A program made the translations under genes and the position numbers. The notes under the pieces are model-generated. The model was given only the letters and a program-made list of their open reading frames with translations. It was not told the origin of the DNA and did no database searches. DNA of 64,000 nt from a virus: IMG/VR virus record IMGVR_UViG_3300025759_000072, positions 1-64,000 of that record. One strand, written 5' to 3'. This document shows positions 44,305-53,801 of this stretch, piece by piece; the first letter of the stretch is position 1; the number at the start of each line of letters is the position of its first letter.

Positions 44305-44612
44305 TAATGGCAGTTTTTCTGTTTCTAGGAAAACTGCCAAACCCAAGAAAGATTAAGCCGCTAGGCGGTAATCCTCAATGTAATTATCGTTTGCTGCGAC
44401 AATTATAGTGTTTGACCTATTACGCGGTCAGCCGTGTTACTCCAATTCGCTATACACCATCAGTCGATCCTAGCACACCCCCAAAAGCACACCGAGATTC
44501 TTTATACCCAGCCTAGGAAAGGAACCTTTCGGTGCCCGATGTGCTTTTGGTGGAGGTGCGGGGATTTGCACCCCGGTCCTGTCTAGCTTTCGCTCCTCTT
44601 CAACGTAACATA
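44305..44612 (-). ncRNA. ssrA: Circularly permuted (two-piece) tmRNA
   Basis: Minus strand: acceptor piece ending GACCGGGGTGCAAATCCCGCACCTCCACCA (CCA 44550-44548), intervening hairpin, coding piece from GGGGGTG (44482) pairing with CACCTCC including G3-U; tag ORF 44394-44353 ANDNYIEDYRLAA*; 3' hairpin TGGCAGTTTT/AAAACTGCCA. Confidence 0.93.
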
Positions 44613-44879
44613 TTATTTATTATAATTTACTTTTTTATCATTGTCAATAGATTTTTCAGTTTTATCCCATTCAAAGGTATCTCGCATTTCCAACAGACGT
44701 TTCTTATCCTTAGACCTATCGATAATGATGTAGTTGTCTTCCTTGCACTTAATCTCTTTACAGATTACAGGCGAGAGAACAGCACCAGCAAGAGTAGCAA
44801 TGATCGATACAGGCTCAATCGCTTTTGCTGGTTGACTCAGGAAGACCAGCGGCAGCACGAAGAGAAGTCTTTTCTTCAT
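44613..44879 (-). CDS. Hypothetical exported protein
   Basis: Signal-peptide-like MKKRLLFVLPLVFLSQPAKA; GGAGG RBS. Confidence 0.5.
   Translation of the reverse strand: MKKRLLFVLPLVFLSQPAKAIEPVSIIATLAGAVLSPVICKEIKCKEDNYIIIDRSKDKKRLLEMRDTFEWDKTEKSIDNDKKVNYNK
44619..44647 (-). promoter_or_regulatory. Sigma70-type promoter of the tmRNA
   Basis: TTGACA (44647-44642), 17 bp, TATAAT (44624-44619). Confidence 0.8.
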
Positions 44880-50538: not shown

Positions 50539-50634
50539 CTCTCTCTGTTTTCTCATCATATATACATTATATCTTGTTTTTAAAAATAAGTCAACTGTTT
50601 TTTTAATAAAAACTAAAAAAAGTTTTGTTTAAAA

Positions 50635-50766
50635 TCAATAGGTTAGAACTTTTTTGTATTTTTCTTTTCGAGTGTACTTCGTCCTATCCCGGACAACACG
50701 GGGCTTGAAGGCGCTATCCTTAGTGAACAGCATCTTGGCGAGGCGAATTTTCTTTTGTTTTCTCAT
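50635..50766 (-). CDS. 43-aa basic protein resembling ribosome-rescue factor ArfA
   Basis: Not in ORF track: MRKQKKIRLAKMLFTKDSAFKPRVVRDRTKYTRKEKYKKVLTY*; ATGA-coupled to the upstream gene. Confidence 0.5.
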   Translation of the reverse strand: MRKQKKIRLAKMLFTKDSAFKPRVVRDRTKYTRKEKYKKVLTY

Positions 50767-51143
50767 AATCTCAACGCAATGTCGTCAGCAATCATCTGGT
50801 CCATACCAGCGGGAGTCATCGGATAACCACGCTGTTTGAGGATCTTAGCGACATGGGGAGATACGTAACCCTTAGTCTGAAGAGCCTGGAGAGGAGCCAA
50901 ACCACTTTCTAACAGCGCAAGGTATTCTTCAACCGTGAAGTTTTCACACAAGAACTTTTTGAAAGCAACCATGCCACCACGCTTGAATCGAGCAATGAAG
51001 GCTTCTTTCGGCATACCAATTCGACTAGGGTGGATCTTGTCTGCACCATAGACCTCATCGTATGTCTTCTGACCAGCAAAGGGTCCGACGTAGTTGAGGT
51101 ACATACCGTCAAATTGGAAATTCTTGTTCACAAACTTAGTCAT
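50763..51143 (-). CDS. Hypothetical early protein
   Basis: FIARFK..FLCENFTVEEY..APLQALQTKGY; AAGGAG RBS behind a promoter. Confidence 0.65.
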   Translation of the reverse strand: MTKFVNKNFQFDGMYLNYVGPFAGQKTYDEVYGADKIHPSRIGMPKEAFIARFKRGGMVAFKKFLCENFTVEEYLALLESGLAPLQALQTKGYVSPHVAKILKQRGYPMTPAGMDQMIADDIALRL

Positions 51144-51246
51144 CTCAATCTCCTTATCAATCATCATAAGTGTATAATAACTTATGCTGAGAAATAAGTC
51201 AACTGTTTTTTTAATAAAAACTAAAAAAAGTTTTGTTTAAAATCAA

Positions 51247-51726
51247 CTACTTAGCGTTTTTAGGGAATATTTTTTGAACTGGGAAGTCATAAAAGACGAA
51301 AATTTGATCAGACGTTTCAAGACGCTGATTCTTTTTACCCTCTTTTTTCTTCAATTTACCGACCTGAGGAATACCAGCCGCTGCTCGTTTTTGAGCCTTT
51401 TTGAGAGATTTCTGTTTTTCTTCGGACCACTCGAATCGAATCAGTTTATCGTCGGTATCATCGATGATCCACATAGTGATATATTTCTGCCCGTTAACCT
51501 TCGTCACTGAATATGACTTAAAAATAAACTCATCTTTCGGCATCTCGTATTTGGCTCGACCAATGAACTGCTCGTTAACCTGAAATGATAAAAAGACAGA
51601 AAATAGAATGAATGGTACGGCAGCATACCTCAACCATGTCTTTTGTACAATAAAAGGAAGAAAGCAGATTGCGCCTGTCACGATCCATAAGATCATCAGG
51701 TTTGTGGTTGTGAACATCATAATCAT
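51247..51726 (-). CDS. Two-TM membrane protein (third gene of the MotA/TolQ-type trio)
   Basis: Two N-terminal hydrophobic segments; ATGA-coupled to the upstream gene. Confidence 0.6.
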   Translation of the reverse strand: MIMMFTTTNLMILWIVTGAICFLPFIVQKTWLRYAAVPFILFSVFLSFQVNEQFIGRAKYEMPKDEFIFKSYSVTKVNGQKYITMWIIDDTDDKLIRFEWSEEKQKSLKKAQKRAAAGIPQVGKLKKKEGKKNQRLETSDQIFVFYDFPVQKIFPKNAK

Positions 51727-52361
51727 GGCGCGCCGTACTTCATATACATTTGTTTTGATGTTGCAATTCTTGTCTCATTGTCTGTAAAAATAACGTTACC
51801 ATTTCGAACATCAAATGACGCTACAAACTTCTCGACGCCTTTCTCTTCAAGATCGAACTTTTTGACTTTAAGAATCTTATATGGATTCACTTGAATGATC
51901 TCTACAGTCACATCTTTCTCTATTCCATAACCGTCGTAGTAATGTGTGGTTACCGAAAACGATCTATCTGATTTTGAACGAATGCTAATCACTTCACGAT
52001 TAACGAAGATTTCTTCTTTACTCTCTTGTGGTTTATTGTCAACTGAAGTATTAAGTGTATCATTCTTTTGGCCTAAATCATCTCTATCGAGATTCATTAG
52101 AGCGATATCTTTACTACGGAAACTTACGATGTTATCTGCATCATCCTTTATCCACAAATCAATATCGTTACCGCTTTCATCATTCCATTTTAGAACAATC
52201 AAATATTCAGCCTTTGGTTCAAAGGTATCCTTCTTAGCAACTGGATTGATTAGAATGAAAGCAAGCAGAAACAGAAATACGAATCCAATCAGCAGATTGA
52301 ATAGTAAATCAACGAATCCAAGTGTGCTTTTATATCTACTCGTTTTGTTCACTGTTTTCAT
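51723..52361 (-). CDS. MotB/ExbD/TolR-like single-TM partner
   Basis: TLGFVDLLFNLLIGFVFLF with intramembrane Asp; soluble WND..DIDLW..LDRDDLG..NRE domain. Confidence 0.6.
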   Translation of the reverse strand: MKTVNKTSRYKSTLGFVDLLFNLLIGFVFLFLLAFILINPVAKKDTFEPKAEYLIVLKWNDESGNDIDLWIKDDADNIVSFRSKDIALMNLDRDDLGQKNDTLNTSVDNKPQESKEEIFVNREVISIRSKSDRSFSVTTHYYDGYGIEKDVTVEIIQVNPYKILKVKKFDLEEKGVEKFVASFDVRNGNVIFTDNETRIATSKQMYMKYGAP

Positions 52362-52797
52362 ACACCACCAACTGAATCTGTGTGAGAGTTGAGCAAACAA
52401 GGCCAACTAACGTAGTTACCAGAGCGGTGCTCATACCAACTGCCATTGCCTGAATTGAATCTTGAACATTCTTAACATTTGATACATCAAGCGTCTCAAA
52501 CGCTGTACCAAGCATAAGAAGGAATCCAGCAACAGTACCAATCATACCAAGACGTGTCATTGCTTCTGCAGCAAATGAAACATAATCAACGATCTTATCA
52601 TTTGTCAGTTCCCATGTTGATCGAGAACTTAACCAACCAACAGAAAGTGTAGATAGAACGAAGATAAAAATAATCAGAAAACTGATCTTTGTAAGATCAG
52701 CATCATACATCATCTCCCACCAATCATAGTGATACATCAGACCAGTGGCAAATGCGGTCAACGAAAACTGAATCCACCACTTCAACATTGCGTTCAT
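52336..52797 (-). CDS. MotA/TolQ/ExbB proton-channel family protein
   Basis: LGMIGTVAGFL...GMSTALVTTLVGL signature helices. Confidence 0.82.
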   Translation of the reverse strand: MNAMLKWWIQFSLTAFATGLMYHYDWWEMMYDADLTKISFLIIFIFVLSTLSVGWLSSRSTWELTNDKIVDYVSFAAEAMTRLGMIGTVAGFLLMLGTAFETLDVSNVKNVQDSIQAMAVGMSTALVTTLVGLVCSTLTQIQLVVYENSEQNE

Positions 52798-53123
52798 AAT
52801 TTTGGTCCTTTATTTTTTTCAGGTTCACCATGACCCGTTGCTATGATACATGATACTTTTTCAATGTGCGTTTCGACTATCGAAAATGAACCTGTTTTAA
52901 TATTACGAAAAATACTCAACACTATTTTATCGTTTGGTTTATCATTAGGTCCAGAACTAAATCCAAAAAATTCAAAACTACTTTCACCAAACTGATTCAA
53001 TTTATTCATAACATCATCACTTGGACCACATATAATATTTTTCTTTGTTGGACCAATAGGTGGATGAGCATATACATTACAAGAAAACAATACCACAGTG
53101 ATTATGGTAATTATTGTTTTCAT
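52794..53123 (-). CDS. Exported hypothetical protein
   Basis: Signal peptide; IICG..GE..N.KTGSFSIVE..SCIIATG. Confidence 0.55.
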   Translation of the reverse strand: MKTIITIITVVLFSCNVYAHPPIGPTKKNIICGPSDDVMNKLNQFGESSFEFFGFSSGPNDKPNDKIVLSIFRNIKTGSFSIVETHIEKVSCIIATGHGEPEKNKGPKL

Positions 53124-53126
53124 TTT

Positions 53127-53801
53127 TTATCCAATCAATCTGGATGTGAAAAATTCATGTTCTTTATATTTATATGGGTCCGACATAAAGATTTGTGGTG
53201 AATCCCCTTCAACAGCAATCAATATGATATTTTGTTCTACTCTCTCGCCATACATCTCTTCTATCATATATGAGTATGTTGCACACTGTAGAAAATAGTC
53301 TTCAATCCATTCTCGTTTTTTTGTTTTACGAGATGTTTTAAAATCAAGCACGGTTAGTTTATTATTGATTTGACAAACCATGTCTACTCTTCCAGCCAAT
53401 CGATACTCATGGCTGAATAGAGCGCACTCCTGCATGAACACTTTTTGTATTGATTGTAAAAGAATTGGTTGAATATTAAAAAACATTTGAACAGCATCTG
53501 GCATCTGCCCTTTGATGATGTCTTCTAAACTTACATTATCGATAAAGTCTTCGAGCATCTTATGAACAGCAGTACCACGAGATGCTGATTGATGACTGAT
53601 ACGATTGGCTTCTGCTTCACCAACCTTTCGGCGCCACTCCATCAATCCTTCTTTCTTTCCAGGAAGGTTGCCGAGCGCAGTCGTTACTGATTCGTATAAG
53701 ACTTCGGAAGGTCCATTTGGTACTCGATACCTGCGACCCTCCTCCGTCGTGATTGCTTCTATGTCGTACTTTTCAAATCTATCTTCATGTATAAATTGCA
53801 T
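53127..53801 (-). CDS. PD-(D/E)xK exonuclease (Cas4/RecB-like)
   Basis: SVTT..EWRRKVGE.EANRI..RGT.VH..AGRVD..DFKTS..YFLQCATY. Confidence 0.85.
   Translation of the reverse strand: MQFIHEDRFEKYDIEAITTEEGRRYRVPNGPSEVLYESVTTALGNLPGKKEGLMEWRRKVGEAEANRISHQSASRGTAVHKMLEDFIDNVSLEDIIKGQMPDAVQMFFNIQPILLQSIQKVFMQECALFSHEYRLAGRVDMVCQINNKLTVLDFKTSRKTKKREWIEDYFLQCATYSYMIEEMYGERVEQNIILIAVEGDSPQIFMSDPYKYKEHEFFTSRLIG

Follow-up and report, generated by a model that had tools for sequence, protein, structure and literature searches.

A 43-residue phage peptide of the DUF7230 family as a remote short-loop homologue of the ribosome-rescue factor ArfA

ArfA of Escherichia coli (YhdL; PF03889; PDB 5MGP, 5U4I, 5MDV, 5H5U) is a small, basic protein that has been seen in complex with RF2 and the ribosome. 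Its residues 15–24 form a short helix, F25 lies in a pocket made by V198 and F217 of RF2, Q27–E30 add a strand to the RF2 sheet, and the Lys/Arg tail, with its KGKGS segment and K-H motif, occupies the empty mRNA channel; residues 1–14 become ordered only upon RF2 opening (PMC8012679, PMC6299226). The solved structures order only 46–48 ArfA residues, and an ArfA of 40 residues is inactive (PMC8012679, PMC6299226). The substitution A18T blocks RF2 activation (PMC8012679), and no single residue of KGKGS is essential (PMC6299226). Two other factors, BrfA of Bacillus subtilis and ArfT of Francisella tularensis, are regarded in the literature as independently evolved. BrfA combines a KH motif with beta-strand addition to RF2, as in ArfA (PMC8012679), and ArfT has a KKGGSTNKK tail, has no F25 equivalent and also uses RF1 (PMC6299226).

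In phage genomes, the name ArfA has so far been given through annotation only, to g10 of Citromicrobium phage RXM (PMC8953757) and to a gene of Pseudoalteromonas phage J2-1 that GenBank calls 'alternative ribosome-rescue factor A' (ATN93434.1, MF988720.1 63035-63190). A tmRNA has already been published for the clade of Melnitz-like and pelagibacter myophages, in a paper that does not mention ArfA (Buchholz et al. 2022, PMC9004378). Here we describe a 43-codon gene from an uncultured phage that carries such a tmRNA as well. We suggest that its product adds a short-loop, unregulated, phage-borne branch to ArfA, a proposal for which the homology argument, made from sequence profiles, is solid. 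By their descriptions, BrfA and ArfT are like this peptide in being small and, in the arrangement proposed below for the peptide, in placing a basic tail in the mRNA channel and recruiting a release factor.

A small early gene of a marine T4-like phage

The window analysed is a stretch of 64,000 nucleotides from an IMG/VR record of 89,418 bases that is estimated to be 52% complete. The large proteins of this record match baseplate and tail families of the T4 type, including a gp6-like wedge (phrog_219, E 1.9e-168) and a gp5-like hub. By gp6 identity the closest cultured phages are Methylophilales phage Melnitz (43%), Pelagibacter phage HTVC008M (42%) and Mosig (38%), all three of them Kyanoviridae, and the host is probably a marine proteobacterium. 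The tmRNA gene that a reading made from the letters of the window (the sequence-only reading) had reported is real: the Rfam model tmRNA_permuted (RF04321) matches positions 44353–44610 of the minus strand with 89.8 bits, and a promoter, TTGACA-17-TATAAT, lies directly upstream at 44647–44619 and agrees with the sigma-70 consensus at 12/12 positions. ARAGORN found no tmRNA in the window, a negative result that we set aside because Rfam detected the gene. The tmRNA is of the same two-piece type as that of the Melnitz-like and pelagibacter myophages, to which the phage is related at about 43% gp6 identity. A search of the 89-kb record (estimated 52% complete) for SmpB and release-factor domains found neither.

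The peptide gene (Table 1) runs on the minus strand from an ATG at 50766–50764 to a TGA at 50637–50635. Lysine and arginine (11 and 6 residues) make up 17 of the 43 residues (40%), and the peptide includes the strings LAKML and FKPRVVRDRTKYTRKEKYK; a Lys/Arg-rich ORF of 43 residues with an LAKML string is thus present as first reported. In the sequence ATGA, this start codon overlaps with the TGA that ends the 134-codon ORF upstream. Seven promoter-like copies of the form TTGACT-17-TATAxT occur on the minus strand of the window between 48058 and 51253, each ahead of one to three small ORFs. Since one stands before the pair and the next follows the stop codon, the peptide gene is the second and last of a short unit, and this unit stands behind a host-type promoter within a block of small early-type genes. 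Given the ATGA overlap and the promoter-like copies on either side, the earlier description of the ORF as translationally coupled in an early unit is a fair one.

Table 1. Features of the window and residues of the peptide aligned with ArfA.
Feature	Position in window	Strand	Family members with the residue
Two-piece (permuted) tmRNA gene with its own promoter, 6 kb from the peptide gene	44306..44651	-	
Promoter-like copy TTGACT-17-TATAAT, directly downstream of the peptide stop	50566..50594	-	
43-codon basic-peptide gene, DUF7230 / PHROG 2701 family, short-loop ArfA homologue	50635..50766	-	
Upstream gene of the same transcription unit, weak PHROG 22119 match	50763..51167	-	
Sigma-70-type promoter-like site TTGACT-17-TATTAT, heads the two-gene unit	51174..51202	-	
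Peptide F20 = ArfA F25			F/Y/L 86/90
Peptide R23 = ArfA R28			R/K 78/90
Peptide V24 = ArfA V29			V/I 86/90
Peptide Y31 = ArfA Y39			Y 89/90
Peptide R33 = ArfA R41			R 90/90
Peptide K34 = ArfA K42			K 88/90
Peptide K36 = ArfA K44			K 83/90
Peptide Y37 = ArfA H45			H 72/90 (Tyr in the window peptide)

The ORF is only 43 codons long in a genome of 39% G+C, and a frame kept open by chance has to be considered. That it holds no gene is, however, vanishingly improbable. A family HMM of 87 members, built after removal of the window peptide and the two relatives nearest to it, gives this frame 66.7 bits and the next best of the 1030 frames of the window 5.9; as those members were recruited by a peptide-seeded search, the independent support is that of the Pfam and PHROG matches described below. 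The homologous genes of eight other viral contigs (L002–L009) differ from that of the window at 17–21 of 51 core nucleotides (33–41%). Of the 17 core codons, 3 to 9 carry synonymous changes, five of the seven contigs compared having 8 or 9, and the amino-acid identity of the last seven codons is partly by construction, as these are in the search pattern. Relatives therefore keep the protein sequence despite many synonymous changes, 89 homologues are found at E<=1e-3, matches exist in both Pfam and PHROG, and the start codon is coupled with the stop codon of the preceding gene. On our reading, the conservation data have already refuted a chance ORF, and the 43 codons form a genuine early gene of an uncultured, T4-like marine myophage.

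The surroundings of the gene vary between phages. Synteny with 13 related loci revealed no shared neighbour of the peptide apart from a single exception (contig L002), a homologue of the 224-codon ORF at 53127–53801, and the upstream 134-codon gene is not conserved beside the peptide in other phages; because the neighbours are unshared, context yields no functional clue.

Several minor features of the region may be recorded. For the upstream ORF, the likely start codon is the ATG at 51143, which has AAGGAG six bases ahead of it (51155–51150), and not the ATGATG at 51167; the first eight codons of the ORF (51141–51167 region) resemble a leader that is shared by a repeat cassette. This promoter-carrying cassette begins at TTGATTTTAAAC, which contains the TGA of the peptide gene, so that the cassette provides the stop codon of the 43-codon gene. 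The cassette leader ATGATGAGAAAACAG and the first codons of the peptide gene have ATGAGAAAACA in common, which may mark a recombination seam or else be due to chance. Just upstream of the peptide unit, a MotA/TolQ/ExbB-family protein is encoded at 52336–52797 (Pfam E 4.9e-8), surrounded by overlapping small membrane-protein ORFs (51247–53123, minus strand).

The DUF7230 family and its relation to ArfA

The core of the peptide, residues 19–39, matches Pfam DUF7230 (PF23876) with E 2e-5 and 25.0 bits against a cut-off of 27, and phrog_2701 matches nearly its full length with E 2.4e-6; the matches to PHROGs 18092 and 6310 are weaker, and NCBIfam gave no match to the peptide at E<=10. We take DUF7230 / PHROG 2701 to be the peptide's own family and place the peptide in a divergent DUF7230 subgroup, 2 bits below the Pfam cut-off. 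To our knowledge, no function has been assigned to DUF7230 or to PHROGs 2701, 18092 or 6310, and DUF7230 was not mentioned in the literature searched.

With the peptide and its nearest relative (P0002, 67% identical, with a DUF7230 score of 44.5 bits) as seeds, a profile search of 1.84 billion representative proteins gave 89 matches at E<=1e-3, almost all of them 35–60 residues in length; two metagenomic proteins, P0150 and P0220, are also among the nearest relatives. The family follows the pattern R-N-P-V-A-K-x-L-R-x-P-x-F-K-P-R-V-V-R-D-R-T-K-Y-T-R-K-x-K-H-K, and in the subgroup of the window K-x-R-x-A-K-x-L-F-x-K-D-S-P-F replaces the first part, R-N-P-V-A-K-A-L-R-T-P-x-F. A word-based homologue search with the peptide found two proteins only, and neither megablast of its 3-kb neighbourhood nor tblastn of the peptide found a match in 50,697 phage records. 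Other family members used as queries did retrieve phages, namely about 63 T4-like phages of Acinetobacter (133 and ZZ1 among them), the Pseudomonas jumbo phage PA5oct with its relatives, and Roseobacter phage CRP-13, in whose records the genes are labelled hypothetical or left uncalled. Bacterial occurrence is rare (2/401 sampled Pseudomonadota genomes, both lacking ArfA). The family is mostly phage-borne and rare in bacteria. The peptide gene stands on its own, as a small gene that passes from phage to phage.

In two of the phage records the DUF7230-type match lies in another frame than the CDS that overlaps it: Acj133p022 in Acinetobacter phage 133 (HM114315.1 12487-12585) and CRP13_gp52 in Roseobacter phage CRP-13 (MW514247.1 39919-40020). 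The small gene appears to be unannotated in both, and the 313-codon call of CRP-13 may be wrong. A bacterial genome (G176, L122:1480-1710), in which no ArfA match was found, encodes a DUF7230 member of 76 residues (46 bits) that has a hydrophobic C-terminal extension beyond the basic tail, as in full-length ArfA; its gene is flanked by a Fic/DOC gene and a gene for an Mrr-type restriction endonuclease.

For comparison with ArfA we used the E. coli protein from NC_000913, against which the ArfA string quoted in the sequence-only reading was checked and found correct, together with 29 diverse ArfA genes. The latter come from 401 sampled Pseudomonadota genomes, in 37 of which ArfA scored above the Pfam cut-off. 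When the alignment of 90 family sequences was compared with that of the 29 ArfA proteins by hhalign, the probability was 95.9%, with E 6.2e-9 and a score of 43.6 over 36 columns, and the single gap, three residues long, coincides with the G-K-G of KGKGS. With either alignment reversed the score was 11, and shuffling the ArfA columns (100 full and 100 core-only shuffles) gave means of 7.8 and 8.9, with a standard deviation of about 1.8 and a maximum of 14.9.

These controls bear on the alternative that the peptide is a generic basic nucleic-acid-binding mini-protein whose likeness to ArfA stems from its Lys/Arg-rich composition; an origin of the likeness in basic composition was also named in the sequence-only reading. 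Lysine and arginine do account for 40% of its residues, the single sequence matches neither the PDB nor Pfam ArfA, and its language-model neighbours include Phage_L5_Gp78 at the same score as DUF7230. However, since sequences of the same composition, reversed or shuffled, scored 8–15 against 43.6, composition does not explain the match. The non-basic F20, V24, Y31 and T32 are among the most conserved positions, and a search of 177,635 distinct PDB sequences with the family profile (A3) returned six matches at E<=10, all of them ArfA (best E 6.6e-7), with no ribosomal or other basic protein up to E=10. The profile of the window's 13-member subgroup, from which bridging sequences had been excluded, found the same six ArfA entries only, at E 0.05–0.16. 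We therefore regard composition as very improbable and, by the shuffle and PDB-profile controls, as largely refuted.

Further support comes from proteins that bridge the two families. An HMM of the diverse ArfA set gave 45 bits to one family member, the metagenomic P0149, and 11–25 bits to about 30 more, and the family HMM conversely matched 28 of the 29 ArfA proteins at E<0.01. Two proteins exceed both Pfam cut-offs, 25.5 bits for ArfA and 27 for DUF7230: P0149 (47.7 and 35.3 bits) and the phage J2-1 protein (41.3 and 28.6 bits). Both join a complete ArfA-type N-terminus to the short-loop tail R-D-K-T-K-Y-x-R-K-x-K-H-K, which they have in common with the window peptide, as they do a normal stop after the tail; they differ from it in keeping the full ArfA N-terminus, H-x-R-G-x-x-x-D-N, where the peptide has a short, basic one. 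IMG names some family members 'stalled ribosome alternative rescue factor ArfA', and the idea of a phage ArfA is thus partly prior, a few relatives having already been called ArfA by automatic annotation.

Taken alone, the window peptide matches ArfA models weakly, so that its link to ArfA is transitive, through the family. It scored 3.7 bits with the diverse ArfA HMM, a phmmer search of the PDB with the single peptide was negative, the matches there requiring the family profile, and Pfam ArfA (PF03889, gathering score 25.5 bits) matched neither the peptide at E<=1 nor the 89-kb record at E<=10. At the family level, what had been a likeness seen by eye is, as judged from hhalign, the ArfA-only PDB matches and the bridging proteins, a true remote homology with ArfA that goes beyond composition; a profile comparison was the check that the sequence-only reading had suggested, and the hhalign score was 43.6 against shuffles of at most 14.9. 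As leads only, the language-model neighbours of the peptide were DUF7230 (0.93), Phage_L5_Gp78 (PF26884, 0.93) and ArfA (0.91); Phage_L5_Gp78 may be a related small basic phage family or a chance neighbour.

Features of ArfA kept and lost

The peptide and E. coli ArfA are both small and basic, and their cores correspond in a helix (residues of about 7–15 of the peptide are helix-like), in the aromatic F25/F20, in the R-V strand (Q27–E30 of ArfA, P22-R23-V24-V25 of the peptide) and in a tail of the form Y-x-R-K-x-K-[H/Y] (Y39–H45 and Y31–Y37), the basic tail of the peptide extending over Y31–K39. At the level of sequence, therefore, the aromatic anchor and the RF2-docking strand of ArfA are present. 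The segment KGKGS, which the sequence-only reading had found missing, has undergone a clean deletion of three residues that leaves D-R-T-K-Y. The K-H motif position is KY in the window peptide, and R33, K34 and K36 are nearly invariant in the family.

Other parts of ArfA are lost. Its first ~10 residues are absent, only four peptide residues preceding the aligned region, and the position of A18 appears to be taken by Lys or Met, with no small residue; hhalign and MAFFT disagree here, which leaves the helix register open to a shift of one residue. Proteins that lack the N-terminal segment exist also among those above the Pfam ArfA cut-off (L119–L121). Unlike E. coli ArfA, the peptide is encoded by a phage behind an early promoter and falls below the Pfam ArfA threshold, and its gene has no internal hairpin of the arfA kind or terminator, no RNase III site and no hydrophobic C-terminal extension, so that it would not be under trans-translation control. 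The TGA comes four residues past the basic tail. No terminator-like site or stable structure was found within or just after the ORF, the fold z-score of which was -0.8, with 40 of 200 shuffles folding at least as well.

Proposed function and the neighbouring tmRNA

As a shortened relative of ArfA, the peptide probably frees stalled ribosomes during infection. The solved ArfA-RF2-ribosome complexes serve as the model for a mechanism, from which we infer ribosome binding, RF2 recruitment and a benefit to the phage. Once a ribosome has stalled on reaching the 3' end of a broken message, the basic tail (Y31, R33, K34, K36, Y37, K38, K39) would enter the empty mRNA entry channel, P22-R23-V24-V25 would add a beta-strand to domain 2/4 of host RF2, and F20 would occupy the hydrophobic pocket of RF2; RF2 would then hydrolyse the peptidyl-tRNA, and the ribosome would be recycled. 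Because a normal stop follows the tail and no internal hairpin is present, the peptide would be made whenever the early promoter fires, independently of tmRNA. A plausible benefit would be the recovery of ribosomes stranded by mRNA cuts, whether from host mRNA shut-off or from RNase-type defences. On balance we favour this account, a constitutive minimal ArfA whose tail senses the empty mRNA channel and whose F20 and strand dock host RF2 so that the nascent chain is released, and think it rather more likely to be right than wrong.

A different outcome could follow from the same ArfA-like binding to the ribosome. The peptide may plug the mRNA channel, or bind RF2 without activating release; variants that we judge together with this are a competitor or inhibitor of tmRNA-SmpB, ArfA or ArfB, and a factor that steers ribosomes towards the phage tmRNA. 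Such a blocker would keep the tail and the RF2-docking strand, as the peptide does, and the features linked to activation are those that have changed, the N-terminal ~10 residues being absent and A18 replaced by Lys or Met (for A18T, see PMC8012679); the phage, moreover, makes a tmRNA of its own. Against this, some proteins above the Pfam ArfA cut-off also lack the N-terminal segment (L119–L121), the bridging proteins, with a complete ArfA N-terminus and a short-loop tail, suggest one functional continuum, and most family-carrying phages are without tmRNA in searches at the Rfam standard threshold and of contig flanks. We consider blocking in any of these forms unlikely, though not so much so as to be neglected.

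The constitutive minimal ArfA that we favour may have a wider counterpart. The lineages that carry the family include marine T4-like phages, Acinetobacter T4-like phages, PA5oct and a roseophage, and one can speculate that many phage lineages carry an always-on, trimmed ArfA that reclaims ribosomes after mRNA or tRNA cleavage and counters RNase-based abortive-infection defences, here alongside a phage tmRNA and in hosts that may be free of ArfA, or else that they carry a rescue blocker; we offer this broader reading tentatively and rate it as rather doubtful. Should the peptide recruit a release factor, the rescue of ribosomes would join the functions that phages routinely bring. The Pfam family DUF7230 would then be a minimal ArfA and, at 35–50 residues and without KGKGS or the ArfA N-terminus, the smallest sensor of the empty channel that docks RF2; so minimal a family would be useful for studies of release-factor activation and of rescue as an antibiotic target. 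It would also provide a testable link from host mRNA shut-off and RNase-type defences to phage-encoded translation factors, and a function for genes that are unannotated or 'hypothetical' in the well-studied phages of Acinetobacter and Pseudomonas.

It had further been proposed that the peptide and the tmRNA form two linked routes of rescue, and that co-occurrence with phage tmRNAs be examined. The locus itself invites a reading as a dedicated, co-inherited two-arm phage system, both genes lying within 6.5 kb on the same strand of the early region, each with a host-type promoter. However, Melnitz, HTVC008M and Mosig each carry a permuted tmRNA, and neither the Pfam model at E<=1 nor the family alignment found a family member in them, which sets these Melnitz-like and pelagibacter myophages apart from the window phage. 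Conversely, the peptide-bearing CRP-13, PA5oct and Acinetobacter phage 133 showed no tmRNA above the Rfam standard threshold in a search confined to non-permuted tmRNA, and in eight viral contigs with the peptide the flanking sequence was free of tmRNA. Added to this, the neighbours of the peptide are not conserved, the two genes are 6 kb apart in the window with separate promoters, and no smpB was found in the 89-kb record (52% complete). With no systematic co-occurrence in the phages tested, the proposed linkage is not supported and a dedicated system seems improbable; the peptide beside a tmRNA is here not a conserved pairing, and the samples point against association. The two could act in the same infection.

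One minor observation on ArfA itself touches on the tmRNA: among the diverse ArfA loci, several frames (at L110, L111, L116, L118, L119 and L121) end in ...AA, for example LLAA or LMAA, and so recall the end of the ssrA degradation tag.
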